A program made the position numbers and the translations under genes. From positions 96,835-160,834 of the forward strand of contig CAMWNP010000002.1 in assembly GCA_947175645.1 (NCBI GenBank): a DNA stretch of 64,000 bases, given 5' to 3'. Numbering within the stretch: the first letter of the stretch is position 1; every line of letters starts with the position of its first letter. Below, piece after piece: positions 228 to 38,511 of this stretch. Origin of the DNA: an uncultured Porphyromonadaceae bacterium (lineage in GTDB: Bacteria; Bacteroidota; Bacteroidia; Bacteroidales; Muribaculaceae). A model generated the notes under the pieces. It did no database searches and was not told where the DNA came from. It was given only the letters and a program-made list of their open reading frames with translations.

Positions 228-239
228 GTTGGTAATAGT

Positions 240-707: not shown

Positions 708-709
708 GC

Positions 710-1499: not shown

Positions 1500-1502
1500 G
1501 GC

Positions 1503-1850
1503 TTAAAATCTGTTTGAGGCGTGCGTTAGCGTTGTTACCGTTTCGGGCAGGAACTCCTCTACAGGCACCCCAGCCTCGCGGCACAGGAACGCAATGCGCT
1601 CCTTGAGCTTGTCATTGTAGCTCTGCGACCACTCGGCCTCTTTCTCACTGGAGAGTGAGAGGTATTTAACCAGTACCAGCACTGCTGCCAGCGCAATAAC
1701 GCGGTCGTTGTCGGGGGTGTAGTCCTCCTTTGCGGCCAGTGTAGCACCAGCACGCTTGCAAGCGGAGAGCAGAGCCTTTTCAAGCTCCAGCTCATTATCG
1801 CCGCTGCAATAGGGTAATACCTCGCTGGCTATTGCCTGTAGATTGTTCAT
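1503..1850 (-). CDS. Head-tail connector or adaptor protein (115 aa)
   Basis: First gene after the major capsid gene. Helical and acidic. Assigned by synteny. Confidence 0.45.
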   Translation of the reverse strand: MNNLQAIASEVLPYCSGDNELELEKALLSACKRAGATLAAKEDYTPDNDRVIALAAVLVLVKYLSLSSEKEAEWSQSYNDKLKERIAFLCREAGVPVEEFLPETVTTLTHASNRF

Positions 1851-1863
1851 GCTCTATTCGGGT

Positions 1864-3036: not shown

Positions 3037-3055
3037 GTGTTACCTCCTTTCGGTT

Positions 3056-3691: not shown

Positions 3692-3705
3692 TGCTCTGTG
3701 ATTAA

Positions 3706-4302: not shown

Positions 4303-4533
4303 TGCTCTACTTGCTTTAAGTGTTCGCTGCAAAGGTAATCAGTAATTTAATATGCGTACAAATACTGAACGCCTAATTTTTGAAAGTAATTCAACCTCAA
4401 TTCACTGCGAATATTGTTAAAGACTGTTAAATATTGCGGATTTTTGGCTTGAAAGTTTGGTATCTTAATTCTTTCCACTAACTTCGCAGCGTACAAAATA
4501 TGAACGCTTTTAGAAAATAAAAAAATCAAATAT

Positions 4534-5052
4534 ATGTTACAGCACGAATTTGAGAGCCGCGTAGGCATTGAGGTAAGCGCAAAAGAGTATGCCGCCATTG
4601 AGCAGGTTTACATGAGCAGCGATGTAGAAAAGGATGAGTTTTGCAAGCTGTGGGCAAAAATGAACCGTGTGCGCATTGCCAATGCTAAAGCCCAGCAAAA
4701 AGCCGCCGCCCAGTTTAAGGCACTCCGCATTGAGGAACAGGTAATTGTAAAAATGCTGGAGTTAGCAGAGCAGCGAGCTAACAACACAGGCTGCACGCTC
4801 CCTGTTAGCGACACCAACATTGATGCAAACAAGGTACGCGCACGCTACGAAGAAGCAGACGGCTTTACGGTGTATTTGGTATTGCGTGATACAGGAGCCG
4901 CAATTACTCACACCTATACAGAGGCCATGAATGAGGCAAAGGCTTTTAGCTCAAGCAATCCTACGGTTTATGAGTTTTTTGGCAACCGCACACTTAACCA
5001 TGGCTACTACAAAGTTGCTGGCTACACCTCTAACCCGAAACAAATATTTTAA
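4534..5052 (+). CDS. Hypothetical protein (172 aa), first gene of the plus-strand accessory island
   Basis: ATG start. It is divergent from the scaffold gene. Confidence 0.6.
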   Translation: MLQHEFESRVGIEVSAKEYAAIEQVYMSSDVEKDEFCKLWAKMNRVRIANAKAQQKAAAQFKALRIEEQVIVKMLELAEQRANNTGCTLPVSDTNIDANKVRARYEEADGFTVYLVLRDTGAAITHTYTEAMNEAKAFSSSNPTVYEFFGNRTLNHGYYKVAGYTSNPKQIF

Positions 5053-5071
5053 CACATAAATACTTACAGCT

Positions 5072-5302
5072 ATGATGATGTGCAGTGTATATGACAAGAC
5101 CACCCAAAAGAGCGAAACCTTTTGCAGCGTGGCAGCCGCTAAAAAACGTATGAAACAACTCCTCAAAGAGGGGCATGAGGTAAGCGGCAGTAAGACTAAA
5201 GTTTACTCAAACGGCGATTGGGTACCGTGCGGAGAAATAACCCTTACAGGCTCCAATGCCGTATTTGTAGCCAATACCAAACAAACTAAAGCAGGATATT
5301 AA
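5072..5302 (+). CDS. Hypothetical protein (76 aa)
   Basis: ATG start, followed by a hairpin at 5310..5330. Confidence 0.5.
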   Translation: MMMCSVYDKTTQKSETFCSVAAAKKRMKQLLKEGHEVSGSKTKVYSNGDWVPCGEITLTGSNAVFVANTKQTKAGY

Positions 5303-5309
5303 CTAACAC

Positions 5310-5330
5310 GGGGCTGGGCTGGCCAGCCCC
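5310..5330 (+). terminator. Stem-loop GGGGCTGG-GCTGG-CCAGCCCC
   Basis: Perfect 8-bp GC-rich stem directly after the stop at 5302. No clear U-tract. Confidence 0.45.
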
Positions 5331-5345
5331 ATAACAAACAAAAAT

Positions 5346-5579
5346 ATGAACGCAGCACGCAGAAAAGAACTTAACAAGCTCATTGAGCAGCTTGAGGATA
5401 TTAAGAGCCAAATTGAAAACCTCCAGCAGGAGGAACAGGACTCATACGACAACCTCCCCGAAAGCCTACAGGACAGCGAGCGTGGCGAGCGTATGCAGGA
5501 GGCCGCAGATGAGCTGGAGAATGCAGCCAGCAGCGTAGATGAAGTAATTGACTACATTAACAACGCAATAGAGCAATAA
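5346..5579 (+). CDS. Hypothetical acidic coiled-coil protein (77 aa)
   Basis: ATG start. Heptad-like Glu/Leu/Gln-rich sequence. Confidence 0.55.
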   Translation: MNAARRKELNKLIEQLEDIKSQIENLQQEEQDSYDNLPESLQDSERGERMQEAADELENAASSVDEVIDYINNAIEQ

Positions 5580-5581
5580 CC

Positions 5582-5785
5582 ATGGCAAAGAGAGTTAAGG
5601 CAAAGGCTCGCGTAAAGGTTATAACCGAATTTGGCAAATGGTGCCTTATGGAGATACGCGGCCTCAAGGAGGGCACAGAGCTTGAGGGCAGTTACAACCC
5701 TCGCAACAAAGCATTTGATTTTAGCTGGAATGGGCAAGACGCTATGCTTTGGGTAGGGCAAAATGCAGAACTAATAACAGAATAA
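5582..5785 (+). CDS. Hypothetical protein (67 aa)
   Basis: ATG 3 nt after the previous stop. Confidence 0.5.
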   Translation: MAKRVKAKARVKVITEFGKWCLMEIRGLKEGTELEGSYNPRNKAFDFSWNGQDAMLWVGQNAELITE

Positions 5786-5789
5786 CAAT

Positions 5790-6221
5790 ATGGCACAGGA
5801 AAGAAATAACACAGCCCTTGTGGCTACCACGCTCACGGCAGAGCAACAGCAGTACCTCAACGACATGGCCGCTTATGGCAAGAGGTTGCAAGAGTTAGCC
5901 TACAACTCGGTAGGCAAATGGGTGGCGGCAGGCTATGCCGATGGCAGAAATAATGTTGCAGGTATGTATTGCTATTGCGGCATGGGCAAAGGTTACAAGG
6001 GTGCGCCCATTGTGCCTGCCAGCGGTAATGCTGTAGTGTTTGCCTCAAAGGAGGCTGCCCAGCGTAAAGCCAGCCAGCTCAAGTATCAAAACGGCAGAGG
6101 CGAGCGCATACGGCTCACGGTAATACCTGCAAACGATTACTTTTGGCTGCTCTTTGATGATTTATGCAATACCATGAGCGTAGCAGAGCGCATGATGGTA
6201 GAGAACAATAAAAGCAAGTAA
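5790..6221 (+). CDS. Hypothetical protein (143 aa)
   Basis: ATG start, tightly packed with neighbours, followed by a hairpin. Confidence 0.55.
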   Translation: MAQERNNTALVATTLTAEQQQYLNDMAAYGKRLQELAYNSVGKWVAAGYADGRNNVAGMYCYCGMGKGYKGAPIVPASGNAVVFASKEAAQRKASQLKYQNGRGERIRLTVIPANDYFWLLFDDLCNTMSVAERMMVENNKSK

Positions 6222-6228
6222 TAATACT

Positions 6229-6252
6229 GGGGCTGGAGTAGTAGCCAGCCCC
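6229..6252 (+). terminator. Stem-loop GGGGCTGG-AGTAGTAG-CCAGCCCC
   Basis: Same 8-bp stem sequence as 5310..5330. It follows the stop at 6221. Confidence 0.45.
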
Positions 6253-6267
6253 ACAACACAAATAACC

Positions 6268-6534
6268 ATGGCAAGAGATAGCAAAACAAAGCAGCTTAAC
6301 GCACAGCTCCAAATAGTACGCCTTGATGGCCTCAAGTTTAAGGCACCCCTCGGCACAGCCAGCACTCGCGGCTGGGGGCTTTACATTGAGGGCAAGGGCT
6401 ACCTCAAATTTAAGAGCGACACCGATTATGTGCCTTATGCTCCCTGTGGAGGCCGTAAAGCACTGGAGAGCATACTGGCCGCTGGTGGCCTCCTCAACTA
6501 CGACAGCATTGAGTTTATTAACCCTGTAAAGTAA
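6268..6534 (+). CDS. Hypothetical protein (88 aa)
   Basis: ATG start in the same-strand gene array. Confidence 0.5.
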   Translation: MARDSKTKQLNAQLQIVRLDGLKFKAPLGTASTRGWGLYIEGKGYLKFKSDTDYVPYAPCGGRKALESILAAGGLLNYDSIEFINPVK

Positions 6535-6553
6535 TATATAACATCATAACAAT

Positions 6554-7435
6554 ATGGAACAAATAGAACGCAGAGCCTCTGTAATGGCTCTTAAACAACT
6601 GGCCTACCGTGCCACTCAAGGCACAAGTTTTGACCCCGACAAGCGCGGCGAAATGCTCCTCAATGATTGCGAAAAGGAGTTGCGCAGCTACACCTCCCAG
6701 CTCCCAGCAGAGCTGCATGAGCATTTTGAAAAGCGGTATCTTGAGCTATATTCAAACTGGCTCTCTGCAAGTAGCCGCTGTATCTCCAGCTTTATCACTG
6801 GACCTGCACGCTTTCCTGTGCGCCGTGCTGAAAGGTTGAGCTGCTGGGAGCGTAGCGCACGCGAAAAGCTGGATAGCTGGGCAGAGCGGTTTGTTAAGCG
6901 TGCCAACAGGCAGGCACGCCTCACTGGCTGGGAGGAGATTGCACGGCTGGAGGATAAGCTGGAAAAGCTCAAGGCGTGGCAGGAGCTTATGAAAGCCGCC
7001 AATAAGATTATCCGTAGCAACAAGTTCGGAGAGGTTGAAAAGGTTGATGAGCTGGTTGCACTCGGCATGAGCGAAAAGCAGGCCATGCTACTGCTTGAGG
7101 AACCCAAATACAGCTTTGAGCGCAGAGGTTTCCAAACATACCAGCTCACTAACAACAACGCCAAAATCAAGGACACAGAGGCACGCATTAAACGCCTCAC
7201 AAATATTGCCAGCACTCCCGACCGCTCTATTGAGCTGGAGGGCGTAACGGTGGAGCTGTGCAATAGTGAGGAGCGCATAAGGCTGCACTTTGATGGCAAG
7301 CCCGAACCCGATATGATTGCCAAACTCAAGCGAGCTGCATTTAAGTGGTCACCGCGCAATATGGCATGGCAGCGACAGCTCACAAATAATGCCCTCTACG
7401 AAACAAAACGCCTGCTGGGTGTAGAGGAACTTTAA
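6554..7435 (+). CDS. Hypothetical protein (293 aa)
   Basis: Long ORF with coding-like composition. The C-terminal FDGKPEPDMIAKLKRAAFKWSPRNMAWQRQ resembles tails seen in mobile-element proteins of unknown function. Confidence 0.6.
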   Translation: MEQIERRASVMALKQLAYRATQGTSFDPDKRGEMLLNDCEKELRSYTSQLPAELHEHFEKRYLELYSNWLSASSRCISSFITGPARFPVRRAERLSCWERSAREKLDSWAERFVKRANRQARLTGWEEIARLEDKLEKLKAWQELMKAANKIIRSNKFGEVEKVDELVALGMSEKQAMLLLEEPKYSFERRGFQTYQLTNNNAKIKDTEARIKRLTNIASTPDRSIELEGVTVELCNSEERIRLHFDGKPEPDMIAKLKRAAFKWSPRNMAWQRQLTNNALYETKRLLGVEEL

Positions 7436-7487
7436 TAACCCTGCCAGCGGAGTGTGCAGGCTCTCCGCTGGCTCTAATACTTACAAC

Positions 7488-7763
7488 ATGATTAAAGCAT
7501 CAGAACAACAGATACAGGCGGCCATTGAGGCTATTAGCGCACGCTTACAGGAGCCGCAAATAAACCAGTACCGTAATGCTCCAGTAAAAGAGGGCTATAC
7601 GGAGGCTCTGCACATATTGAGGGAGCGCATAGAGAGTTATGGAGGGATAAACAAACATTGCCACTCGGTACAAAGTAGAGCCATTGCGGTTTTGGCCGTT
7701 GATTTCCTCCGTGGAGATTGCACACATGAGGTACTTTGCAAGGTGCCCATAAAAAAGCTATAG
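7488..7763 (+). CDS. Hypothetical protein (91 aa from the ATG; the track ORF starts at a GTG at 7452)
   Basis: ATG at 7488 (MIKASEQQ...). Confidence 0.45.
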   Translation: MIKASEQQIQAAIEAISARLQEPQINQYRNAPVKEGYTEALHILRERIESYGGINKHCHSVQSRAIAVLAVDFLRGDCTHEVLCKVPIKKL

Positions 7764-7765
7764 CC

Positions 7766-7999
7766 ATGGCAGAGGGAGGCAACACAGCAGTGGTGGTACT
7801 GCTCAAGGGTGCGCCCTATGAGGGCAGCCGCACATGGCTCTTTGGGAGCAAAAAGGCCATATATGACCACCTGCCCCAGCACTTGCTGGGCATTGGACTG
7901 GTAACATTGCAGAACCGCAACATTACCCGAAAGCCCTATGAGAATAACCTTTGTATAATTCAAAAACTGGAGGTGTTACGCGCCTCTCGCAAAAAGTAA
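7766..7999 (+). CDS. Hypothetical protein (77 aa from the ATG; the track ORF starts at a TTG at 7736)
   Basis: ATG at 7766, 3 nt after the previous stop. Confidence 0.45.
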   Translation: MAEGGNTAVVVLLKGAPYEGSRTWLFGSKKAIYDHLPQHLLGIGLVTLQNRNITRKPYENNLCIIQKLEVLRASRKK

Positions 8000-8005
8000 G
8001 TAACA

Positions 8006-8788
8006 ATGATAGGAGCAATAATCGGCGATATGGTGGGCAGCACTTATGAGTTTGCCCCCACAAAGAACTACAATTTTGAGCTGCTGCCAGCAGGTAGCAC
8101 ATACACAGATGATAGCATCATGTGCGTGGCCGTGGCCGATGCAGTAATGCACGGCCAACGCTTTGCCTCTGCCATGCGTGATTGGGGGCGTAGGTACCCC
8201 ACACCAAAAGGCAGCTATGGCGGCAATTTCGCGGCATGGCTCCGCACAAAGAACCCTGCACCATATTACAGCTTTGGCAACGGCTCTGCAATGAGAGTGG
8301 CCGCTGTCGGCTGGGCTGGAGAGAACCTACTTGACGTGCAGCTAACGGCATACAATAGTGCAGAGTGTACCCACAACCACCCCGAAGGTATCAAGGGAGC
8401 CGTGGCCGTAGCTACTGCTGTTTACTTGGCTCGGTGCGGCCATACAAAGGCCGACATAAAGCAACGCATTGAGCAGCAGTTTAGCTACGATTTGAGCTTT
8501 GACCTGCTGGAACTCAAGCGCACATACAGCTTTAATGAGAGCTGCATGGGCACCGTGCCAGTGGCAATAAAGTGCTACCTTGAGAGCAAGGATTTTGAGG
8601 ATGCAATAAGGCTGGCCGTGGCCATGGGAGGCGATGCGGACACTCTCGGTTGTATTACTGGAGCCATTGCTGAAGCTGGCTATGGCACCCACTCAATACC
8701 CACGCCACTCTTTGAGGCGGCCATGAATGAGTTACCAACCGACATGAGGGAGGTGGTAGTGGAATTTATAGAGCGGTACCAGCGTTAA
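8006..8788 (+). CDS. ADP-ribosylglycohydrolase family protein (260 aa)
   Basis: N-terminal GAIIGDMVGSTYEF and C-terminal GGDADTLGCITGAIAEAGYG match the two metal-binding signatures of the ARH/DraG family. Confidence 0.85.
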   Translation: MIGAIIGDMVGSTYEFAPTKNYNFELLPAGSTYTDDSIMCVAVADAVMHGQRFASAMRDWGRRYPTPKGSYGGNFAAWLRTKNPAPYYSFGNGSAMRVAAVGWAGENLLDVQLTAYNSAECTHNHPEGIKGAVAVATAVYLARCGHTKADIKQRIEQQFSYDLSFDLLELKRTYSFNESCMGTVPVAIKCYLESKDFEDAIRLAVAMGGDADTLGCITGAIAEAGYGTHSIPTPLFEAAMNELPTDMREVVVEFIERYQR

Positions 8789-8820
8789 GCGCACTGGTAA
8801 TTAGATTGTTTAGGTTGCTG

Positions 8821-8851
8821 GCCAAATGGGGATATAATTGCCTCATTTGGC
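8821..8851 (+). terminator. Hairpin GCCAAATGGGG-N9-CCTCATTTGGC after the ARH gene
   Basis: 10 of 11 bp complementary, followed by T-rich CTGCTTTGTTTGG. Confidence 0.45.
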
Positions 8852-8942
8852 CTGCTTTGTTTGGTATATTCAAGAAAACCGACTAACTTTGCACTCATAT
8901 TGAGCTACAGGGGTAGCTCTAAAGACATAACACATTAGCCAA

Positions 8943-9073
8943 CTGCTCGCAAAATCACCACAACCGTAAGCAATGGGCTAAAAAAATGTAACTCACTATG
9001 GGTGTAGTGTATCTACGCACAGCGTAGGACTATGCCATGTGAGTTACAGGGTTGTGGTGACCCTTGCGAGCAG
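8943..9073. other. 131-nt three-tier nested inverted repeat (structured RNA or DNA element, function unknown)
   Basis: Hand-paired stems: P1 is 8943-8952/9064-9073 plus 8955-8965/9050-9060. P2 is 8987-9001/9035-9048 with a 1-nt bulge. P3 is 9013-9018/9022-9027. Confidence 0.5.
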
Positions 9074-9164
9074 GTGGCATCAGTCCTACGCATTTTTGCC
9101 TACGCAGAGCTGCTGCCATGCTGGCGCAAAATTAGGCAATAACACCAAACAACCCACAAGGCTA

Positions 9165-9584
9165 ATGAAACAATTTTTGAAAGTAACAGCAATGGCAGCC
9201 TGCCTGTTCCTCGGAGCTTGTGCCAGAACTCCCCAGCAGCAAGCGGAGGCACTTATTGAGGAGTATATGCAGAGCCATCTAAAAGACCCTGCCAGCTATG
9301 AGTGCATACACATGGGCAATCTCGGCAATGTAACGCCTATGAGTACGGCATTGGAACTAATAGAAAAGGGGTGTAAGGAGCATGGCTATCCCAACGATAG
9401 TATTAACCCCATGCTGGCACGTTTTAGAGCCATGAGAGAGCAGGAGGGCAAAGACCCTTACGAACTCCTCGGTTACACTCTTACGCTCAAGTATCGCGCC
9501 AAAAACTCCTTTGGAGGCAATGAGATACAAGAGAATGAGTTTATTTTCAATAAGGAGCTGACAACGATAGAGGCCGTAAAATAG
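9165..9584 (+). CDS. Lipoprotein (139 aa)
   Basis: The ATG at 9165 gives MKQFLKVTAMAACLFLGAC, a signal peptide with an L-G-A-C lipobox. Confidence 0.7.
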   Translation: MKQFLKVTAMAACLFLGACARTPQQQAEALIEEYMQSHLKDPASYECIHMGNLGNVTPMSTALELIEKGCKEHGYPNDSINPMLARFRAMREQEGKDPYELLGYTLTLKYRAKNSFGGNEIQENEFIFNKELTTIEAVK

Positions 9585-9661
9585 GCTTTCTTCCAAAAGT
9601 TAGGCACAACTTATGCAGGTGCGTGCGCGTTTTATGATTAACTTTGCAGAAAATTTCGCGC

Positions 9662-10300
9662 ATGAGCCAGCAAGATACTAAATACCTGTACTACAAAGGC
9701 GAGCGCACCAACCCTTTTGAGGAGATTAACGACAAGCAGGGGGCGTGGTGCGAGCGTTACAACGATACGGCCTCAATGCTGTGGTGTTTTGAATACCACT
9801 GGGCAAACGGCTGGGCAAAATACTCCCAGCTTGAGGAGCGTAACCCCAGCTATTATTTTGAGCTGCACAAAGAGCCTCAAAAGGAGTTTGGCAGCATACT
9901 GGAGGCATTACAGGTATTTGCATTGCACAGCTATTCGGGAGCCTTGAAAAACGGCTCAAAACGCTGGGTGCAGTATGTGTATGAGAATGGCATGGCAGAG
10001 CGTTTCTACAAGCCGCTGCACAACATTGTGCCAGCAACGGAGGTACCCAGTTATCTACACTGGTACCATGGGGAGGCTCAAGACCCCTATACGTTAGACA
10101 CTCGCGGCACTCGGAGCTTTTGGTGGGATTTTGAAAAGAACTGGTACACCACTACAGAGGAGCCGACACAAAAAACATGGGAGGAGCATTTGCATAACTG
10201 GTTCGTGCGTTGTGTGGATAAGCAGTGGGCAGCAATACCCGAAAAAGAGCAGGAGCGGCTGCTGGCAGCCTACAAAGCTGGAGAGAGGTTACAAGATTAA
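9662..10300 (+). CDS. Hypothetical Trp-rich protein (212 aa from the ATG; the track ORF starts at a TTG at 9644)
   Basis: ATG at 9662. Its stop overlaps the convergent stop of the MuF gene at 10297..10300. Confidence 0.55.
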   Translation: MSQQDTKYLYYKGERTNPFEEINDKQGAWCERYNDTASMLWCFEYHWANGWAKYSQLEERNPSYYFELHKEPQKEFGSILEALQVFALHSYSGALKNGSKRWVQYVYENGMAERFYKPLHNIVPATEVPSYLHWYHGEAQDPYTLDTRGTRSFWWDFEKNWYTTTEEPTQKTWEEHLHNWFVRCVDKQWAAIPEKEQERLLAAYKAGERLQD

Positions 10301-13300
10301 ACTATCTCCTCCAACTCAATACACCAATCGCCAACTTTACCCAGCCCTCGCGTTTTACACTGGTACGGAGCTTTAAGCAATCTAAATTTACTGCCAGCTC
10401 TAAATGTAATCTCACTCTCGCCACCCCCAAAATAACCTACTTTGTGTATATCTACGCCAGTTTTGCCGTAGATTTTCATTATTACACGCTGCCCTTTGGA
10501 GGCATGAACTATGCCGTCAGCGAAATGGTCGGCGGTATGTATGCTTGTTGTAGAGCTGGTGGGTGCAACCATTTGCCATGTCTTATCCTTGCTGTGCCAT
10601 GCCTGCATAATACTCTCCCAAAAGGCATCTTTTGCAGGGTTGGCAATAGCATCGGGGTATATGTTTAGACCTCGGTATGTTACGCCGTTATAGCGTGGCA
10701 TACTCTCAATGGCCTTATTGATGGCAGCCTTGAAATTGGCAAGCAACTGCTCAACATCAGCCTTAACGGCAGCATCAGTAATGAGGCTAACCTTACTTGC
10801 TCCATACAGGTAATCGCATATAAAGTTGGAGCTTTGAGTAAAGTTTGTTATCAGCGACAGCTCGCGTGCGCTCACATTACCACCCATGGCCTTAATCTCC
10901 TTTGCAAGTTGCTCACAGGCCGCTTTTCTACCAAACCAGTTTTCACCGCCAATCTTTTTACTCCAAATACCCCATGGCTCACTGGGAGCTGTAGGATTTA
11001 CAGGAGTATGGCTAAAATACTCCTTAATGGCCTTTTGTACCTGTGCCTCGGTAAGCCCATCTACATTTGCCAGCGTTGGCTGGAGGCTCGCATAACGCTC
11101 TCCTAATTGCGCAGTAAAGTCTGCCAGCCGTTGCATGGCAGAAATAACATTATAGTCGCGCTCATTGCCACTGGCCGCTGTAAGAGCTTTTTCATACTCA
11201 AACACCAGCTTATCCCTCTGTGCCTTGTCAGCGGCGGTATAGAATTGCTCAATATCGTAACCACCACCGCCTTTCTTGCGGAGCCGCGCCAGCCTCTCCT
11301 TGGTAAGCCTATCTACCTCTTTTTGCACCTCGGCCAGCTTGGTTTTTATAGCAGCCTCATTTGGGTGTGCCGCGCCAGTAAGGTTTTGCAGCTCCATTAC
11401 AAGGTTCTTAACCTTTGCGCTCTTGGTCGTTTGAGCAAACACCACCACTGCATCTATATCGGGCTGTATGGCATTGAGGGCAATTTTGGCCTTGTACTGC
11501 TCCTCCAGCTTTTCAAAATACTCAATAAACTTGCCTGTGGTAGGGTATTTTGTGGGGTTGAGCTTGGCATAATATAGTTCCTTTTGAATAACCTTTTGCA
11601 GGAACAGCTCATCGGTGGAGTAAATGCTACTCTTGGCCATGTGTTTGCTCCAGTTGGCCATAAAGGTTTTTGCATCCACCTCTCCAAACTCATTAACCAA
11701 TCCCCACATTGTAGGTTGCTCGGCATACTCGGCCACTGCAATCTTTTTGGCTGCTGCCATTTCCTTTGCCAGCTTTTTAGTGGCGGCCTGTATCTCGGAG
11801 GCAGTGCCATTAGCCACCACGCTCTCCAGTGCTGCGGTATCAATGCCCAGCAGGTCATAATGTCCCTTGCTGGCAGCTCCCAGTACGTTGTTGGCCACCT
11901 TAACCGCTTTGTTGTATGCTGCCACCTCGGCCTTGGCTTGAGCCTTGGCCGCCACAACCTCCTTAACAAAGTTGCTGCCATCATCTGTTAGCTCCAAATG
12001 GTAGTGCGTTACCTGCGTGGCCTTTCCTCCTCGCACAAGGGTTTTAACCTCGGTGCTTACGACCTTGAATTTGGTATTGGGGAGGAGCATGGCAGTAGGC
12101 TCTCCATTTGCCATGGTTTGCAGGTATCGGCTGCCCTTTGGCAAATCAAGTATGCACACTGCGCCACTATCAGCCCCGACAAGGCCATTTTCAAGCGCAG
12201 CAGAGCAAAGTTTGCTGTAATTCGTGCCAACATACCTGCTGGCCGTAAAAGTGGCTGTATCGCCACTTATCGCAGCCTCCAGCGTTTGCTTATCGAGAGC
12301 CACCATGAATTTGCCATTAGTCTTGGTTGCAAACTTGGCCTGTGTTGCAATATGCTCCATCTCTGCAAGCTGTTCGGGAGTGCAGTATTGTGCCAGTAAG
12401 TTGTTGCCCTTGGCAGCCTCGGCCAGTAGGTTTGCAAGCTCGCTGGGGTCTGTGAGCTTTGCCAGTTCCTCAAACTGCACACCGTTTGGAGTTACGGCAG
12501 TAGATAGAGGAAAGCCACCAGCCTTGCCAGCCTCTACAAAGTTGCTGGCCTCGGCAAACTCCTTGGCTGTGGCAGTTTGCATTTTGGTAAACTCATTAAG
12601 GTCTATCTCGGCTTTACCCATGAGCTTGCCAAAATTGGCCAGCCCAGCCTCATTTTTGTACTCATCAACCCACCGAAAGCCTTTGGCAATATTGCCGCCT
12701 TTGTAGTTCTCACGGATAAAGTATGGGAGGCTTTGAGCTGCCTGTATGCGCTCGGAGTTCTCGGCTATCCAGTTTGTAAACTGGGGCGGCATATCTGTAA
12801 CCATGCCAGCAGGTGCAAAGCCCTCGGTGTCCTCGCCTCGGAGTATTTGCCCTGTCAGCTCCTCCAGTTCCTCATCACTGCAAAGGAGGGGTACAATGTA
12901 GCAATAGCAGTGAGGGTGCCAACCCTCAAACATAAACTCTTTGGGATAGGTGCCAGCTAAATCATCGCAAATGTCACGGCAGGGGTGGTTTTTGCTCATT
13001 TTGACCTCAAACCCACATACAAAATTGAGCTGTTGCCAGCGAGTAATATCCGCATGGCGGTAGGCCATATTTGTTTCTGTGCGAGTGAGGCGCATGGCGT
13101 TTTTGTAGCTGCTCCTGTAAACACCTGTGCCAGTATGGTAATCCTTGGGGTTTGCATCAACCCAGTAAAAGCTGTCGGTGTCCTTGTCGTAGCACCTACG
13201 TTTCCACTTGCGGCCATAAATGGGGTTGCCCTCTGCATCCTCGCCCTTTTTGTAGCGAAAGCGGCGAAATAAATCATCGGGGTTTTGCAGGTACTCCCTT

Positions 13301-13806
13301 ACCTGCCTGCTCAAGGTGTCGGCACTCATGCCTTGCCCCAGCCCCAAATCCAGCGCAGCCTCAAGGTCGGTGCGAGCTTGCCCCACATAACGCCACACGC
13401 GCTGTGAGAGGTCAAGCCCTGCATCCTGCCTTGAGAGGAATGCCTGCATGGCCTGTTTGTTGCGCTGGAAAAACCGCGCATAATGGTTATCCTCAATACT
13501 GGCCTTGCCAAACAACCCCTTAACCAGTTTGTCGGTGGTGTCATTGGCATAGTTCCATTCTCTCACAATGTTGCCACGGATAGAGCGGTACACCTCCGCA
13601 TAAAGCTGGCGCAGCTTTTTATCTACCTTGGGGGCTATATCGTAATCGGCAAAAGCAAATGGTTTGCCCTCCTCCAGCTCCAGCCCCTCACACATGGCCA
13701 CAATCTCGCCAATACGTTTTTGGAACGTATCGCGCACGGCAAGCGCATACCACTCTGTGCGCTTGCCCAGTTTGCTGTAAACCTCTTTCCAGTTAATGTT
13801 TGCCAT
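10297..13806 (-). CDS. MuF / SPP1 gp7-like head morphogenesis protein with a C-terminal ADP-ribosyltransferase-like domain (1,169 aa)
   Basis: MuF signature NHPCRDICDD...GWHPHCYCY around residues 273-303. The C-terminus has an R-S-E triad: TYRG (R at 10672..10674), SSTTS, and GGGESE (ESE at 10411..10419). The gene follows the portal gene. Confidence 0.75.
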   Translation of the reverse strand: MANINWKEVYSKLGKRTEWYALAVRDTFQKRIGEIVAMCEGLELEEGKPFAFADYDIAPKVDKKLRQLYAEVYRSIRGNIVREWNYANDTTDKLVKGLFGKASIEDNHYARFFQRNKQAMQAFLSRQDAGLDLSQRVWRYVGQARTDLEAALDLGLGQGMSADTLSRQVREYLQNPDDLFRRFRYKKGEDAEGNPIYGRKWKRRCYDKDTDSFYWVDANPKDYHTGTGVYRSSYKNAMRLTRTETNMAYRHADITRWQQLNFVCGFEVKMSKNHPCRDICDDLAGTYPKEFMFEGWHPHCYCYIVPLLCSDEELEELTGQILRGEDTEGFAPAGMVTDMPPQFTNWIAENSERIQAAQSLPYFIRENYKGGNIAKGFRWVDEYKNEAGLANFGKLMGKAEIDLNEFTKMQTATAKEFAEASNFVEAGKAGGFPLSTAVTPNGVQFEELAKLTDPSELANLLAEAAKGNNLLAQYCTPEQLAEMEHIATQAKFATKTNGKFMVALDKQTLEAAISGDTATFTASRYVGTNYSKLCSAALENGLVGADSGAVCILDLPKGSRYLQTMANGEPTAMLLPNTKFKVVSTEVKTLVRGGKATQVTHYHLELTDDGSNFVKEVVAAKAQAKAEVAAYNKAVKVANNVLGAASKGHYDLLGIDTAALESVVANGTASEIQAATKKLAKEMAAAKKIAVAEYAEQPTMWGLVNEFGEVDAKTFMANWSKHMAKSSIYSTDELFLQKVIQKELYYAKLNPTKYPTTGKFIEYFEKLEEQYKAKIALNAIQPDIDAVVVFAQTTKSAKVKNLVMELQNLTGAAHPNEAAIKTKLAEVQKEVDRLTKERLARLRKKGGGGYDIEQFYTAADKAQRDKLVFEYEKALTAASGNERDYNVISAMQRLADFTAQLGERYASLQPTLANVDGLTEAQVQKAIKEYFSHTPVNPTAPSEPWGIWSKKIGGENWFGRKAACEQLAKEIKAMGGNVSARELSLITNFTQSSNFICDYLYGASKVSLITDAAVKADVEQLLANFKAAINKAIESMPRYNGVTYRGLNIYPDAIANPAKDAFWESIMQAWHSKDKTWQMVAPTSSTTSIHTADHFADGIVHASKGQRVIMKIYGKTGVDIHKVGYFGGGESEITFRAGSKFRLLKAPYQCKTRGLGKVGDWCIELEEIV

Positions 13807-13858
13807 AGGGTTTTATTTATAAATAGTGGGGCTGGTTGGAAAATGTGTGAAAACGCGG

Positions 13859-15280
13859 TTACTGGTAGTTAAAAACATTGTTTTTGGCTGTCTCCTCCTC
13901 TTTGGCTTCTTTCTCGGCCTGCTCATTAGAAATGCGCTCTTTTTCACGCTGTTTGTCGCGCACAAGGGGGTTAAGCTCTATAAATGTTTCATTACTCATG
14001 CCACCTGCATTTTTAGTCTTGACAGCATTGGAAATTGCTTCCTCAATATCCTCCCCAAACGGCTCTTGGTACTCATGTTGCACCAGTAACTGCTCAAGCT
14101 GGGCACGCATGGGAATATTGAGTACCTTGGAGAGTATGGCAATAATGAGGTTGGCAATGCGCATAAGATACTCATCGTGTGACTCTTTACGCATGGAGGC
14201 TTTAATGTCTGCCAACACCATCATTTGCTTGAGAGCCTTGGCTGATACGTTAGTAAGGCGGCTCATGCTCTCAAAATCAATATTGGGGGTAAAGGTTTCA
14301 CGAAATATGTGCCGTTCATTATCATCGCTCTCTTGCTTTTTAAGCTCGCTGGCGGTGTCGGGTGTGAGGTAGCGCAGCTCTCCCTTTTCGCCCAGCACAT
14401 AGAGCTTATTTTCGGTGTCCTTGTCGGGCAGAGAATTAACCACATCAACGGTGGCCACAAGAGCTGGGTCGGCCATGTAGTCGTTTACATCGGCTGTACG
14501 GCTCTTAACGTATTCCTGTCGCTCAATGAGGTGGTTGGCACCATCCCACTCTGTTTCCTGCTCAAGGAGTATTACAGGCTTTTTGCCACAGAAATTAACC
14601 TCTCGCTCCACCTGCCAGCCAAAATTTTTACGCTTGCAGTGGTATGTGTAGTTATCAGTGAAAACATCCACATAATAGGCTGTAGTATTGCCACGCTCAC
14701 GCATATAATACCCACGCGCAAAATACAGGAGGCGGTCTACATGGTCTTTTATGTAGTATAAATCATCGCCCAGCGATTTAGCCAGCACCTTTATAAGGCA
14801 GTCGGCTTTACCATCGCTATTTTGGTAGCAATGGAACAGCAGCGCACTCTTGGTCTCGGCACCAGCCAAACGCTTTGCCTGCCTAATGCGAGCGTTAAAA
14901 TGAGTGGTACGGATAAAGTCGGTAAATGCTTTGTACGCAGCATCTGTGTTTTGGCTACTCTGCACCCATTGCACAGGACGGCCATAAATAAACACAACGG
15001 CCATTTCGTTTATGTACTTGGCATAAGAGAGAGGAAGCCGCCAGCGTTTAACCCATCCCTTGAAATTGCCATCTTTATCATAAATAGGCTTATCCATGCG
15101 CTGCATTATGGGGTGCTGCTCCAAATTGTACTGCTTTAGAGCCTCAAGCTGCTTGGGGTTGTCGCAGGTCATAAGAGCAAGCGCATCGCCTATGTTGTGA
15201 GCCTCCAGCAGCTCCTCAAACGACTGCTGGTAGCCGACAGCCGTTTTTAATTTGCTTTGAACGTAATTAAAAAAACTCAT
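13859..15280 (-). CDS. Portal protein (473 aa)
   Basis: Size and position between the large terminase and MuF genes. Confidence 0.75.
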   Translation of the reverse strand: MSFFNYVQSKLKTAVGYQQSFEELLEAHNIGDALALMTCDNPKQLEALKQYNLEQHPIMQRMDKPIYDKDGNFKGWVKRWRLPLSYAKYINEMAVVFIYGRPVQWVQSSQNTDAAYKAFTDFIRTTHFNARIRQAKRLAGAETKSALLFHCYQNSDGKADCLIKVLAKSLGDDLYYIKDHVDRLLYFARGYYMRERGNTTAYYVDVFTDNYTYHCKRKNFGWQVEREVNFCGKKPVILLEQETEWDGANHLIERQEYVKSRTADVNDYMADPALVATVDVVNSLPDKDTENKLYVLGEKGELRYLTPDTASELKKQESDDNERHIFRETFTPNIDFESMSRLTNVSAKALKQMMVLADIKASMRKESHDEYLMRIANLIIAILSKVLNIPMRAQLEQLLVQHEYQEPFGEDIEEAISNAVKTKNAGGMSNETFIELNPLVRDKQREKERISNEQAEKEAKEEETAKNNVFNYQ

Positions 15281-15299
15281 ATCGTGTTACTTTTATGTG

Positions 15300-16829
15300 C
15301 TACAATAAGCCTGCAAAGCTGCCTTTGGTTATGCCCTCGGGCAGCTCTCTCGGCGCAATAAGGAAATACTCAATGGCGTAGTAGAGCAAATCCACAAACT
15401 CATCATGTGTTTGTGTGGGGAACCCTGCAATCTCCTCCACAAAGTCCTCATTCCATTCGCCCTCTACCAGCACCACGCGGCCACACTCAACCTTTGGGCT
15501 ACAGGTACACAGGCGCACACCCTTGCTGTCTATTGGCGTGGGTGTCTTGGTAACATTGAGGTCAGTGCTAACCTTGAGCTGCTGCACCACACTTATGCCG
15601 TTGGCCTTGGGTTCTATGCGCAGTGTACTGGTGCGCTTGTTAAAGCCCCATGCCTTGCAGTATTCGGGCAGGAACGCAATGAGGTCGGGGAATGTTTTCC
15701 ACACCTTTTTGGCATGGAGTATGTAAAGCTGCTGGCCAATTTTGCAGGCGGCCAGTATGCCGCTGGGGTCATTATCGCCCTTGCGGTGTTTCTCATCAAA
15801 AGCAGTGTCAAGGAAGAAATGCACTGTGGCATTGCCACGCATGGCCTCAAACTGGGCACGGCTAATGTACTGGAACCACTTTTTCTGTATAATGTTACCC
15901 TCCTCGCTGGCAGGTCTCTGCTCATACTGGCCTGCATAACCTCGTGTGCCCAAATCAATGCGAGCCTCGGCCAATACCTCTGCATCAAGGCGCACAGGGT
16001 CAAGGAGGCCGTTAATGTATCGGTCGCGCAGCACCACTGGGGTTACGTTGGGGGAAAGCTCGGCAGGGAGGCAAATGTGCCTTATCTTGTCGGCTTTCTT
16101 TTTGAGCAGGTAGCCTGTTACATCCTCCTCATGGAGCCGCTGCATAATGGTTATGGTGGGGGTGTTCTTTTTGTTTACCTTTCGTGTGGAGAGCGTTTTG
16201 GTAAACTCCACTGCCTGCTGCCTCAATGGCTCACTCTCTGCCTGTTTAGGGTTTTGGGGGTCATCGTTTATTATGAGGTGGGCGTGTTTACCAGTAACAG
16301 CGGACCCTGTACTGGTTACATACCTATCTCCTCCAGCCGTGTTGCCATAAAAGCCCTTACCGCTCTTGTCCCTACGCATAACCACTTCGGGGAACAGCCG
16401 CCTGTATTTCTCGCTGGTAATAATATCCTTACTCTTGGAGGCGTGGTCAATGCTCACATCGCTGGAGTAGGAGCTGGAGATAATGCGCAGGCTTGCATCT
16501 TGAGTCCATAGCCATGCTGGGAACATAATGGTTACAATAGTGCTTTTGGTAGTTCCTGGCGGTATGTTGATAAGGAGGTCATAAGGTTTTGGCTGGCGGC
16601 CTACAATGTAGGTGGCCAGCTCTTGCAGCTCATCGCACAGGTACTTTATGTGCCAGTTAAATACTGGTTCTTCGGGTATAATAACAGCCCAAAAAGTTTC
16701 TACAAACCTGTAAAAACTTTTCCTGCACATGAGAGCCTGCACTTTATCCAGCAGCTCATCAGTAAGCTCTATGTTACTGGGCTTTTTTGTCACGTTTAGC
16801 AGCAATGGCGTAGAGGGTTGCCAGCTCAT
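15300..16829 (-). CDS. terL: Terminase large subunit (509 aa)
   Basis: Walker A-like PPGTTKST and Walker B-like HLIINDDP, with a C-terminal nuclease-like half. Its start overlaps the end of TerS. Confidence 0.85.
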   Translation of the reverse strand: MSWQPSTPLLLNVTKKPSNIELTDELLDKVQALMCRKSFYRFVETFWAVIIPEEPVFNWHIKYLCDELQELATYIVGRQPKPYDLLINIPPGTTKSTIVTIMFPAWLWTQDASLRIISSSYSSDVSIDHASKSKDIITSEKYRRLFPEVVMRRDKSGKGFYGNTAGGDRYVTSTGSAVTGKHAHLIINDDPQNPKQAESEPLRQQAVEFTKTLSTRKVNKKNTPTITIMQRLHEEDVTGYLLKKKADKIRHICLPAELSPNVTPVVLRDRYINGLLDPVRLDAEVLAEARIDLGTRGYAGQYEQRPASEEGNIIQKKWFQYISRAQFEAMRGNATVHFFLDTAFDEKHRKGDNDPSGILAACKIGQQLYILHAKKVWKTFPDLIAFLPEYCKAWGFNKRTSTLRIEPKANGISVVQQLKVSTDLNVTKTPTPIDSKGVRLCTCSPKVECGRVVLVEGEWNEDFVEEIAGFPTQTHDEFVDLLYYAIEYFLIAPRELPEGITKGSFAGLL

Positions 16830-17454
16830 CCTCTGTAAGCTCCTCTACGGTTATGGTGGTGTTGGTTGTTGGTGGGTTAAGAGGCTGGCCGTTGGCACCA
16901 GTAACCTCTTTGCGGTCGGGAGCATACAGCCCCAGCAGCTTTGCGCGGTACTCCAGCAGCTTGCGTATCTCGGAAATGTAGCCTACATGGCCGTAGTTGG
17001 TTACATTCTCGCGGCTCTGTATCTGCTTTATGTACGGGGAGGGTATTTTGCGCTTGCCCTTGAGCTGGCCATCCTCGCCCTCGGAGGCTGGCACCTCAAA
17101 ATGGCCGCGCTCTTGCCGCTGCCTTACCTGCTCAAAATCTGTCTTGGATTTCTCCCATGCCTCATACAGCTCTGCAATGAGCATATCGACACGCGCCACC
17201 TCAAGCTGCACCCACTCCTCGGTGTTTTGGTTGTTATCCTCTCTCCATTGCTGGAGCAGCAGCTTGAGGTCGCTGTGTATGGTAAATGTGCTTACCTTTT
17301 TGGGGAGCTGGAGGCGAGCCGTTACTGCCTCCGCTATTTGGCGCACACTCTTACCCTGTAGGCGTAGCTCGGACACGATTTGCAGGCGTGCCTCGCGTAT
17401 CTGCCTACGCTTTTGGGTAGAGCGTTTGTTTATTTCTGTTCCGTCTAATGGCAT
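16774..17454 (-). CDS. terS: Terminase small subunit (226 aa)
   Basis: N-terminal HTH-like LRLQGKSVRQIAEAV. It lies immediately upstream of TerL and overlaps it. Confidence 0.6.
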   Translation of the reverse strand: MPLDGTEINKRSTQKRRQIREARLQIVSELRLQGKSVRQIAEAVTARLQLPKKVSTFTIHSDLKLLLQQWREDNNQNTEEWVQLEVARVDMLIAELYEAWEKSKTDFEQVRQRQERGHFEVPASEGEDGQLKGKRKIPSPYIKQIQSRENVTNYGHVGYISEIRKLLEYRAKLLGLYAPDRKEVTGANGQPLNPPTTNTTITVEELTEDELATLYAIAAKRDKKAQ

Positions 17455-17467: not shown

Positions 17468-17878
17468 TTAATGGTTAATAGCCTTAATGAGCTTGCGCAG
17501 GGGCTTGGCTAAATATGAGAGCAACCCCTGCCAGCGTATGCGCAAAAGCCTGTAGTGGGCAATAATGCTGTGTTCCTTGCTCTGCTCATTGGGCTGGGGG
17601 TTAAACCTTGAGAGGAGCGAAAGGAAATGCTGGTACTTATCGCCGTTGCAGCTTGCCAGCTCAATGTAAGTGCGGCCATGTTCGGGGAATGTATGCACGG
17701 CCAAATGGCTCTCTGCCAGCAACCACAGGCAAGTGTAGCCTTGAGGCTGGAAATGATGCTCTACAACCTCCAGCACGTTAAAGCCACACAGGGAGAGCAT
17801 GGTGTCAAACAGGTGGCGCAGGTCACTCGGTTGTGTCGTTGTTATCCATGCCGAATGCTGCCAAATCTTCGCTTGCAT
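17468..17878 (-). CDS. S-adenosylmethionine decarboxylase-like (class 1 SpeD/SpeH, pyruvoyl) protein (about 136 aa)
   Basis: HHFQPQGYTCLWLLAESHLAVHTFPEHGRTYIELASC matches the AdoMetDC core (xxESH(L/I)xIHTWPE...D.F.C), including the Glu-Ser self-cleavage site. The start was chosen at the ATG at 17878; an alternative ATG is at 17800. Confidence 0.7.
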   Translation of the reverse strand: MQAKIWQHSAWITTTQPSDLRHLFDTMLSLCGFNVLEVVEHHFQPQGYTCLWLLAESHLAVHTFPEHGRTYIELASCNGDKYQHFLSLLSRFNPQPNEQSKEHSIIAHYRLLRIRWQGLLSYLAKPLRKLIKAINH

Positions 17879-19259
17879 AAGTAATTTCGTTATAGGTTGT
17901 TGGTATGGCTTTAATATCGCCCTTGTAGAACACCAGCACATTTTGGTGGCACTTGCCCACCTTACGGTTGCGCATATACCTCTGCACACGCTGGGGGAGT
18001 GTGCCTATAGGCTCCACAATAATGCACTCGTTATAGAGCGGCATACCATGAGCCTTAAACATTCGCTTTATATCGCCCACAAAGTCATAATAGTAGCCCT
18101 CTTTGTCGCGTATATCGCCCACCACAATTACAGCAAAGCGGTTTTGTTTGAGGCAGGTAATGGCATTGGCAAAGGCGTTTTCCAATATGCCCAAAAATGC
18201 CTCATAGGTGGGTTGGTTGCTCGCATCATTGGGCTTGTCGCTGTAAACCTCAAGGTCGTAGTACGGAGGGCAGCTAAAGAGCAAATCCTGTGAGCCAGCC
18301 GCAATGTGCTTGGCTACGTTCTGCCCATCATCGCAAATGTAGTGTGCGCTCATGCCCTCAACGCGCTCATTGTTGAGCCTTGCCTGCTCCTCGCGTAGCT
18401 CAATGCCTGTAAAGCTCATGCCCAGTGTGGCGGCCACATAGCCAAATACGGTATCGCCAGCAAAGCAATCAAAGGCCGCGCCTCCCTCCATACCAAACCA
18501 TCTGCAAACAATCTCGGCCATTACTGGGTCAAGCAGGCTAACACCGTTGTTGATGGTGGCCATGCAGTTTGTTTCGCCGTCTGCCAGCGTGCCCTCTCGG
18601 CTCTCGCCAAAGTCGGCGATGCGCTCACGCCACATGGCTTTGCGCTGCCTCCAGTAGCCCTGTCGGGTGTCAAGTATGGTAAACGGTGGTGCAATAAACT
18701 TGTCGGAGAGGCTGCCATGCTTGCCACTCTCGGAGCTGGAGCCAGCAGAGCCGTTGCCCTCGGCCTCGCCTCCATTGTCGGGCTGCCAGCAGTCAAGCCC
18801 CCACTCCTCAAGCTCCATCGGCTCCCACTCATTAGCGAGCATATCCCAATCCCATGCTCCATAAGAGAGGTTATCCTTAATGATAAACTCTCGCTTCTCC
18901 TCCTCGGAGAGCTGGGAGGCGTGCAGTATCTCCACCACTGGAGCCTTGAGCCACTTTGCCCAGTAGTTGCGCAGGTTCTCACGCTCCAGCTCGGTTTTTT
19001 GCGCATACCCATTGCATTTGCCCAGCATCATGTTTACCTCGGCAGGGCGCATTTTGGATATGGCAATGAGGGCACGGAGGCGCATATTGCCGCCCAGCAC
19101 AATATTGGCCTCATCTACAACCACAGGGCGCAGGTGCAGCATCTTGGGGAACATCAGCAGGCTCTTTTGGAGCTGTTCAAATTTATCCTGCTCAATGCCG
19201 CGTGGGTTCGCCTCATTGAGTATTATATCGGTTATTGGTACAAGGGGGCTTTTGGTCAT
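17823..19259 (-). CDS. ParB-like N-terminal domain fused to a DNA methyltransferase (478 aa)
   Basis: N-terminal ParB/Srx-like ITDIILNEANPRGI...LRPVVVDE...GGNMRLRA. SAM motif FDCFAGDTVFG and catalytic motif SCPPYYDL ((S/D)PPY type). Confidence 0.7.
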   Translation of the reverse strand: MTKSPLVPITDIILNEANPRGIEQDKFEQLQKSLLMFPKMLHLRPVVVDEANIVLGGNMRLRALIAISKMRPAEVNMMLGKCNGYAQKTELERENLRNYWAKWLKAPVVEILHASQLSEEEKREFIIKDNLSYGAWDWDMLANEWEPMELEEWGLDCWQPDNGGEAEGNGSAGSSSESGKHGSLSDKFIAPPFTILDTRQGYWRQRKAMWRERIADFGESREGTLADGETNCMATINNGVSLLDPVMAEIVCRWFGMEGGAAFDCFAGDTVFGYVAATLGMSFTGIELREEQARLNNERVEGMSAHYICDDGQNVAKHIAAGSQDLLFSCPPYYDLEVYSDKPNDASNQPTYEAFLGILENAFANAITCLKQNRFAVIVVGDIRDKEGYYYDFVGDIKRMFKAHGMPLYNECIIVEPIGTLPQRVQRYMRNRKVGKCHQNVLVFYKGDIKAIPTTYNEITYASEDLAAFGMDNNDTTE

Positions 19260-38336: not shown

Positions 38337-38379
38337 TACGTTGTTTTCTTGCAGGTTATATGGCTTGAAAGCTCCATTT

Positions 38380-38507: not shown

Positions 38508-38511
38508 TTTG

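Follow-up and report, generated by a model that had tools for sequence, protein, structure and literature searches.

A putative Bxa-type MuF-ADP-ribosyltransferase toxin with two candidate immunity genes in a temperate Bacteroidota-type phage

In contig CAMWNP010000002.1 of an uncultured Porphyromonadaceae bacterium, a 1,169-aa open reading frame (ORF) that follows a phage portal gene raises the question of whether a head-morphogenesis protein has been joined to an ADP-ribosyltransferase (ART) toxin and, if so, where such an enzyme would act and what would protect the cell that makes it. We analysed the 64,000-nt stretch from position 96,835 to 160,834 of this contig (hereafter the window, meaning the whole stretch); residue numbers are those of the 1,169-aa protein unless another protein is named. 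A sequence-only reading had described the ORF as a MuF protein fused to an ART-like toxin domain, and the ORF itself (10297..13806, minus strand), its place after the portal gene and the motifs quoted were all found where that reading had put them. The gene starts with ATG, has its stop codon at 10297..10299 and is delimited by the ORF list, by a match to phrog_16625 and by full-length homologues. The reading of an ART toxin domain joined to a head-morphogenesis domain of MuF type also proved correct, on the strength of PHROG and Bxa homology and of the ART profile and fold. Bxa is the toxin of the Bacteroides stercoris prophage PhiBxa and is paired with BAH and Bsi as its immunity proteins (Brown et al. 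2021; Alexei et al. 2024, PMC11699363). Very probably, the gene studied here specifies a MuF polymorphic toxin of Bxa type, carried by a temperate phage of Bacteroidota type, with an R-S-ExE ART and two convergent immunity-like neighbours.

The ADP-ribosyltransferase domain at the C-terminus and the head-morphogenesis domain

By profile, predicted structure and motif content, the C-terminal 230 residues (aa 940-1169; 10300..10989, minus strand) are an R-S-E-class ART that is predicted to modify arginine. The full-length query returned 1,603 relatives, with full-length homologues from 96% to 45% identity, and the last 230 residues aligned by BLASTP (E 1e-9 to 1e-26) to C-termini carrying precomputed PF03496 or PF01129 matches. 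Thirty non-redundant C-terminal domains, from 94% down to 27% identity, were aligned (alignment A1), of which 20 match PF03496 and 17 match PF01129. Against the PDB, the A1 profile matched Vis (7.3e-13), Tre1 (1.1e-8), HopU1 (2.7e-8) and SpvB (2.5e-7), followed by Lmo0066, CDTa, iota Ia, ExoT/S, Vip2 and C3larvin. The AlphaFold2 model built from A1 (pLDDT 87.5, pTM 0.84) led to the same class of proteins, the top 50 Foldseek matches in the PDB all being R-S-E ARTs (probability 1.00, TM 0.47-0.61). The ART fold on which the sequence-only reading had staked its claim was recovered both by profile and by predicted structure. Among the viral fold matches, the best were ARTs fused to head-morphogenesis, minor-capsid or portal proteins, with the T4-type ModA, ModB and RNA-polymerase ART ranking lower.

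The ordered R-S-E triad that had been read from this C-terminus stands in register with the motifs of Vis and Tre1 in the A1 profile alignment. The NAD-binding arginine R1045 (codon 10672..10674) lies in VTYRG (aa 1042-1046) and aligns with the YRG of both proteins; the S-T-S motif, S1084-S1085-T1086 (10549..10557), lies in APTSSTTS (aa 1081-1088); and the ExE of the ARTT loop, E1130-S-E1132 (10411..10419), lies in GGGESEITF (aa 1127-1135), lines up with the ExE motifs of Vis, Tre1 and ExoT and includes E1132 as the predicted catalytic Glu. Conservation of the triad, on which the earlier claim likewise depended, holds down to 27% identity and marks it as no mere coincidence: E1130, E1132 and S1084, together with G1046 and R1038, are invariant in the 30 sequences of A1, and R1045 is retained in 22 of them. 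The eight exceptions all belong to one subgroup, which reads FSG. Across 54 ART-type loci, the S1084 position is Ser in 49, and the two ExE positions are Glu in 49 and 51.

The FSG subgroup consists of relatives of 817-824 aa (P0075-P0120; loci L009, L013, L014, L017-L019, L022 and L045) in which Ser replaces the YRG arginine. These proteins keep STS, ExE, the ADP-ribosylglycohydrolase (ARH) gene and the Bsi-like neighbour described below despite having no canonical Arg, and the invariant R1038 (in PRYNG) might compensate for its loss.

Searches with the single sequence were less sensitive. Pfam searches with the whole protein and with the last 200 aa yielded nothing useful, the ART domain itself having no Pfam match at E <= 1; the last 210 aa, compared as one sequence with the PDB, had weak matches only (ExoT, E 0.31; Vis, E 0.79); and a word-indexed search with the C-terminal 230 aa returned only three near-identical fragments, the homologues being reached via the full-length query. 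Because the domain has no Pfam match of its own while its relatives do, the ART homology is transitive or visible only at the profile level. This ART subtype is a small one: phmmer, run exhaustively over 1.84 billion representatives, found 47 proteins at E <= 1e-3 and 16 at E <= 1e-10, mostly several hundred to ~1,400 aa long and matched close to their C-terminus.

At the other end of the protein, aa 1-380 (12667..13806, minus strand) form a divergent MuF-type, SPP1-gp7-like head-morphogenesis domain; this assignment is made from PHROG and Bxa homology and from gene position, not from curated MuF models. The match to phrog_16625, annotated 'Bxa ADP-ribosyl transferase', reaches 1.1e-157, with its best stretch running from aa 4-369 against profile positions 7-377, and further matches are to head-morphogenesis or minor head families (phrog_7625, 6e-54; phrog_1657, 2.5e-28; phrog_115, 2.3e-22; phrog_4728, 1e-9). 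The same aa 4-369 are 52% identical to an 869-aa Bacteroides acidifaciens protein at a Bxa-like locus (L011), whose length and Glu820 within GENEI match those of published Bxa (PMC11699363). The MuF/gp7 signature that had been noted at about residues 273-303 is present at aa 273-303 (12898..12990, minus strand), as NHPCRDICDD (aa 273-282; 12961..12990) followed by GWHPHCYCY (aa 295-303; 12898..12924), and its residues C280, G295, W296, H297, C300, C302 and Y303 are invariant among 19 N-terminal homologues. TIGR01641 covers aa 232-307, spanning the Cys/His motif, at E 8.7e-4 with a score of 19.6 bits, its cut-off being 39.65, and PF04233 had no match on the window sequence and weak matches in 6 of 19 relatives (best E 5.7e-4).

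Gene position places the protein in a head module. The large terminase gene (TerL; 15300..16829; phrog_38, 2.7e-92; Terminase_6C, 3.2e-5), the SPP1-type portal gene (13859..15280; PF05133, 2.6e-29; phrog_64, 2.4e-46) and the toxin gene follow one another on the minus strand, with a 52-bp gap between the portal and toxin genes, and the same TerL-portal-MuF order is found in the related loci L001-L005.

Neighbouring genes and the comparison across related loci

If the C-terminal domain is an active toxin, what would protect the producing cell? Two plus-strand genes that converge on the toxin gene are candidates. The nearer one (9662..10300, 212 aa; the mechanical ORF start is a TTG at 9644) overlaps the toxin stop codon by 4 bp at its 3' end. 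Its product has no Pfam or NCBIfam match and no strong PHROG match, and its 29 database relatives are all unannotated. We used a hidden Markov model (HMM) seeded on the 107-aa ORF that occupies the Bsi position of the Bxa-like locus L011, the 212-aa group being excluded from its training. The seed ORF carries K-Y-A-E, corresponding to K89/Y90/E92 (K-Y-x-E) of published Bsi with a three-residue offset. This model matched the 212-aa protein twice, at its aa 7-86 (6e-4) and aa 129-184 (1.8e-9), with an overall value of 1.7e-12, and the motif [FY]-Y-[KH]-G-E-x(2,3)-P-[FY]...W..E..W is common to the Bsi-like proteins. Because the model matches two modules and the motif is shared, we read 9662..10300 as encoding a tandem Bsi-like protein, which is a candidate structural immunity protein. 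An earlier view of this neighbour as an unrelated new family was dropped once the Bsi-seeded model had matched it twice.

The second gene (8006..8788, 260 aa) encodes a BAH-like ARH (PF03747, 8e-34; phrog_6572, 7e-62), for which the closest curated NCBIfam families are DraG (1.7e-18) and Tri1 (1.7e-11). The protein starts MIGAIIGDMVGSTYE, so that its Glu15 coincides in position with E15, the reported catalytic residue of BAH (PMC11699363); it contains a GGDADT metal motif and shares 48% identity with the ARH found at the Bxa-like locus. Two other genes separate it from the toxin gene, at a distance of ~1.5 kb, and it is a candidate enzymatic immunity protein of the ADP-ribosylarginine-hydrolase type. 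The convergent orientation of the neighbours was considered as an argument against an immunity role and rejected, since the 42 loci that contain an ARH, the Bxa-like ones among them, all have it on the strand opposite to the toxin gene. The sequence-only reading had contained neither the ARH nor the Bsi-like gene, nor the second ART-fold domain described below, nor the prior description of this toxin family in Bacteroidales prophages.

Whether such neighbours accompany ART-type toxins was assessed across 80 loci from species-representative genomes, nearly all of Bacteroidota, and five metagenomic loci, with co-occurrence counted among de-duplicated proteins that had enough downstream sequence. 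An ARH was present in 36 of 46 loci with an ART-type C-terminus, compared with 2 of 25 with another or no C-terminus (odds ratio 41, Fisher p 7e-9); it was always on the opposite strand and usually 230-680 bp from the toxin gene. A Bsi-like ORF was found at 39 of 47 ART-type loci and at 2 of 28 with another or no C-terminus, and homologues of the 212-aa gene occur in all loci with the window's own ART subtype (14/14), mostly 0-59 bp from the toxin gene. Both kinds of neighbour thus go with ART-type C-termini over some 75 related loci.

The C-termini themselves vary behind a shared N-terminus. In one relative (locus L005, protein P0058), the N-terminus is 89% identical, an HExxH metallopeptidase-like C-terminus stands in place of the ART and the adjoining ORF is not Bsi-like, which looks like a recent toxin-cassette swap; another (P0121) ends in CdiA_C, and other relatives with the shared N-terminus carry other ART subtypes. 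Judged from these alignments, a conserved N-terminus with alternative C-termini is the pattern of a polymorphic toxin.

The ARH might instead have nothing to do with this toxin and be an independent counter-defence or regulatory phage gene that came to lie in the same cassette by chance. Its separation from the toxin gene by two other genes, the ART loci that lack it and its retention in the near relative with the HExxH C-terminus would all suit such a gene. We nevertheless consider this improbable, given the strong co-occurrence with ART C-termini, the much shorter distance that is usual elsewhere, the experimental demonstration that BAH is an immunity enzyme (PMC11699363) and the identity of the window ARH to its counterpart in the Bxa-like locus.

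Several points weigh against reading the locus as a Bxa-type toxin with its immunity genes. The loci compared are phylogenetically related, so the Fisher p-values overstate their independence, and the ART and non-ART calls come from our own iterated HMM, 4 of whose 54 members are without the motifs. Between 7 and 10 ART loci have no ARH, and the HExxH-bearing phage of L005 still has one, so the ARH is not strictly tied to the ART. Neither the ART nor the N-terminal domain, when searched as a single sequence, passes a curated threshold in Pfam or NCBIfam. Finally, the window ART resembles the Bxa-like C-terminus over 38 residues only, in a local match around the ExE (E 4e-5 to 1e-3; the window-subtype HMM scores Bxa-like C-termini at ~1e-4), and its target and specificity may therefore differ from those of Bxa.

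Middle region, mode of action and phage setting

Between the two terminal domains, the sequence-only reading had seen a long Ala/Lys-rich linker. That description holds for aa 381-429 and 617-700, to which the Ala/Lys/Glu enrichment (45-48% A+K+E) is confined; it does not hold for aa 430-629, which are confidently predicted to be folded, or for aa 700-920, which are 51-75% identical among full-length homologues and as conserved as the N-terminal domain. By composition and per-block conservation, aa 630-939 (10990..11919, minus strand) form a conserved Ala/Lys-rich connecting region, which opens with the stretch richest in Ala and Lys (aa 617-700). It closes with the least conserved block, aa 921-960, directly before the toxin domain, where a recombination junction would be expected to show such variation.

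The folded segment (aa 430-629; 11920..12519, minus strand) is conserved in 59 of the relatives listed, and its AlphaFold2 model (pLDDT 92.5, pTM 0.87) suggests a second, catalytically dead ART fold. The top 50 Foldseek matches in the PDB (TM 0.32-0.48) are ARTs, one of them the VIP2-like domain of anthrax lethal factor, and are led by C3larvin (2.5e-7), followed by CDTa, Ia, Plx2A, C2-I, Vip2 and C3. The ExE position reads E569-P-T571, and the catalytic-Glu column is never Glu in 28 homologues. Sequence comparison gave less: BLAST of the region aa 500-600 against the C-terminal ART domain (E 3.7) and hhalign (probabilities of 0.7%, 1% and 13%) did not establish a second ART, the profile of the internal domain had no match among PDB sequences, and a single hhalign segment (E 0.002-0.05) lines up with the strands on either side of the ARTT loop, which puts E569-P-T571 at the ExE position.

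One degenerate ART fold in a protein invites the thought that the other is an inactive structural remnant as well, and that the protein serves only in head assembly; the failure of the single sequence to reach a Pfam ART threshold could be read in the same way. This we regard as very improbable, since the C-terminal domain keeps R, S-S-T and ExE intact and conserved to 27% identity, in contrast to their loss from the internal domain, and since the ARH and Bsi-like genes are retained beside it.

Binary toxins have enzymatic components (Vip2, iota Ia, CDTa, C2-I) in which a single polypeptide combines an N-terminal ART fold without catalytic residues and an active C-terminal fold, and the internal pseudo-ART followed by an active ART echoes this layout. 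The two could conceivably form a comparable functional module, in which the pseudo-ART docks the toxin or threads it through the portal-tail channel and the duplicated Bsi-like protein engages both folds, a speculation to which we give little credence. If it were true, long-form phage MuF toxins could be evolutionary kin to, or a source of, binary-toxin enzymatic subunits, and they would be a tractable model for a folded enzyme leaving a capsid.

How would such a protein act? On the interpretation of the gene as a Bxa-type polymorphic toxin, the toxin would be made together with the late head genes, and the MuF domain would dock a few copies at the portal or procapsid, as in the SPP1 gp7 precedent cited in PMC5576092, so that the toxin would travel in the virion. 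The ART domain would use NAD+ to mono-ADP-ribosylate arginine of target proteins; arginine is proposed because of the ExE rule for R-S-E enzymes, the Arg-type hydrolase next door and the arginine modification by Bxa that has been determined by experiment (PMC11699363). In the producing or lysogenic cell, the Bsi-like protein would block the active site and the ARH would strip ADP-ribose from arginine, the two together averting self-intoxication. These steps are inferred by analogy with SPP1 gp7, Bxa and Tre1-Tri1 and from the ExE rule. The main site of action may be a newly infected bacterium, into which the toxin would be ejected with the DNA, or other cells reached after lysis. The published activities of Bxa are on epithelial cells, after its release, and on bacteria that were made to express it (PMC11699363).

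Ejection with the DNA and early action in the manner of T4 Alt, as the sequence-only reading had supposed, is the standard published hypothesis for MuF toxins (PMC5576092, PMC9503650) and is plausible for this one. It can be taken further, to a host takeover without killing, in which the few ejected copies would ADP-ribosylate RNA polymerase or defence factors and thereby favour infection or sway the choice between lysis and lysogeny, with the hydrolase acting as a reset. The MuF fusion and the portal-adjacent position fit packaging, phage ARTs fused to head proteins are common, and ModA, ModB and Alt-like ARTs of T4 are among the structural matches; however, bacterial toxins (Vis, Tre1, Certhrax and C3) come closer in structure and sequence than the T4 enzymes do. 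A dedicated candidate immunity gene of the binding type, varying together with the toxin subtype, is easier to reconcile with a promiscuous toxin than with a tuned regulator, and Bxa modifies many proteins and kills E. coli (PMC11699363). We therefore hold a takeover of this kind to be possible though on the unlikely side.

About equally tentative is the proposal that the protein, or its C-terminal domain, is a lysis-released exotoxin or fitness factor, as Bxa is, freed on prophage induction to act on mammalian epithelial cells or competitor cells, the immunity genes serving only to protect the producer before release. The phage is temperate, the gene family and the ARH and Bsi-like neighbourhood are the same as in Bxa-like loci, and an effect of Bxa on epithelial cells has been published (PMC11699363). 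Set against this, the kinship between the window ART domain and that of the Bxa-like protein is only distant, and neither a signal peptide nor a domain for cell entry was identified.

Turning to the phage itself, bases 57638..64000 of the window are an exact copy of bases 1..6363 (6,363 bp, 0 mismatches). Because of this exact end repeat, we conclude that the window wraps one circular or terminally redundant phage genome of 57,637 bp, without bacterial flanks. A megablast search of 9000..17000 against 50,697 phage records returned no match. Judging from its integrase and repressor-like genes, the phage is temperate and of Bacteroidota type. The lysogeny module (35999..38583) contains a tyrosine integrase gene of Bacteroidota type (37047..38336, minus strand; Phage_int_SAM_5 and Arm-DNA-bind_5), an HTH_3 repressor-like gene (35999..36499, plus strand) and, adjoining the integrase gene, a tRNA-Arg(CCG) gene (38511..38583, minus strand) that may mark the attachment site. 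A Bacteroidota origin is also indicated by nearly all of the 80 related loci. The closest public relatives (L006, P0027 and P0127) are labelled as Bacillota, Lachnospiraceae or Roseburia metagenome-assembled genomes; because these labels conflict with the integrase type and the related loci, the phage contigs in question were probably mis-binned.

The two immunity-like genes belong to an 11-gene plus-strand cassette (3872..10300) that splits the minus-strand head operon, with scaffold-like and major capsid genes resuming after it on the minus strand. Several small ORFs of the cassette are without a known family and could be orphan immunity genes. The cassette is kept in loci L001 and L003, but there a KilA-N/ANT gene stands in place of the lipoprotein-like gene at 9039..9584.

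Elsewhere in the genome, a diversity-generating retroelement occupies 41110..44466. Its reverse transcriptase gene (41110..42576, minus strand; RVT_1, 9e-14) accompanies a 106-nt template repeat (TR; 42774..42879) and a variable repeat (VR; 43070..43175) that lies at the 3' end of an ORF at 43036..44466 (minus strand), and the mismatches between TR and VR all fall at template adenines on the coding strand. Further cargo or replication genes, in 17823..19259, 24082..24930 and 32375..34357, encode an N6/N4 DNA methylase, a ParB-like protein and an SMC/AAA_23 ATPase.

Comparison with known systems

MuF-ART fusions, their position in the head module and the Bxa-BAH-Bsi triad of Bacteroidales prophages have already been published (PMC5576092, PMC9503650, PMC11699363), and the established picture of MuF polymorphic toxins is unchanged; a specialist will find no surprise here. 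The locus is a new member of that kind and departs from the published ones in four ways: its ART is of another subfamily, with Vis and Tre1 as the nearest; its body is longer and includes a degenerate ART fold; its Bsi-like gene is duplicated; and its ARH is displaced. Phage ARTs of gut Bacteroidales have been linked, through Bxa, to host colonisation and bacterial killing, and this locus adds a distinct ART subtype, with the internal pseudo-ART and the duplicated Bsi-like gene as small new details of how such a toxin is built and neutralised. Because a complete 57.6-kb temperate phage genome carries both the toxin and its likely antidotes, toxin, immunity and delivery could be tested together.

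Among the systems with which the gene can be compared, SPP1 gp7 shares the place after the portal gene, and TIGR01641 matches the Cys/His motif region of the window protein weakly, below its curated cut-off; gp7 has no toxin domain. The binary-toxin A components are matched by both ART domains of the window toxin; in contrast to them, however, the two folds here are ~310 residues apart and stand behind a phage head domain, the TM values are modest (0.4-0.5) and there is no pore-forming B component in the window. T4 Alt, ModA and ModB are likewise phage-encoded R-S-E ARTs, and ModA, ModB and an RNA-polymerase ART occur among the viral fold matches, yet they rank below the toxin-type ARTs. To our knowledge, T4 has no cognate immunity pair of the Bsi/ARH type. 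Alt, which is packaged in the head and injected (PMC9503650), also differs in having no MuF domain.

Vis of Vibrio splendidus (PDB 4xzj) is the best match both by profile and by fold (TM 0.58-0.61), with YRG, STS and ExE aligned, and its PDB entry names it an NAD(+)--arginine ADP-ribosyltransferase; the deposited chain, however, has 239 residues and no MuF module, and the aligned identity is only 16-18%. The Tre1-Tri1 pair of the Serratia type VI secretion system (T6SS; PDB 6dre, 6drh) resembles the locus in that Tre1 is among the top profile and fold matches of the ART and the window ARH matches the Tri1 family. The dual immunity logic of occlusion plus enzymatic reversal would also be shared, as proposed here from the genes. 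Tre1, however, is delivered by the T6SS via a PAAR domain rather than as a phage head protein, and Tri1 holds in one protein the two immunity functions that the window appears to split between two genes.

Putative ARTs make up 14% of 191 MuF toxins found by Jamet et al. 2017 (PMC5576092), among them the E. faecalis EFV MuF-ART toxin; the word 'Bacteroid' is absent from the main text of that paper. The locus agrees with these systems in its MuF domain with a variable C-terminal toxin, temperate phage, packaging-module site and adjoining candidate immunity gene. It departs from them in the orientation of its candidate immunity genes, which is convergent and not co-directional, and in the length of one of these, 212 aa as against under 150 aa.

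The closest likeness is to Bxa, whose activity both BAH and Bsi neutralise (PMC11699363). The two toxins have homologous N-terminal MuF domains (BxaNT being residues 1-322), a C-terminal ExE ART and a place in the head module after the portal gene, and both are accompanied by convergent Bsi-like and ARH genes, the window ARH having Glu15. They differ in that the window toxin is 1,169 rather than 869 aa long, with a middle that cannot be aligned and contains the extra degenerate ART fold, and in that its ART belongs to another subfamily (YRG...SST...ESE) that is not orthologous to BxaCT. The neighbours differ as well: the window Bsi-like gene is a tandem duplication of 212 aa, compared with about 107 aa, and between the toxin gene and the ARH, which an inserted lipoprotein-like gene has displaced, there are 1.5 kb in place of about 0.35 kb.

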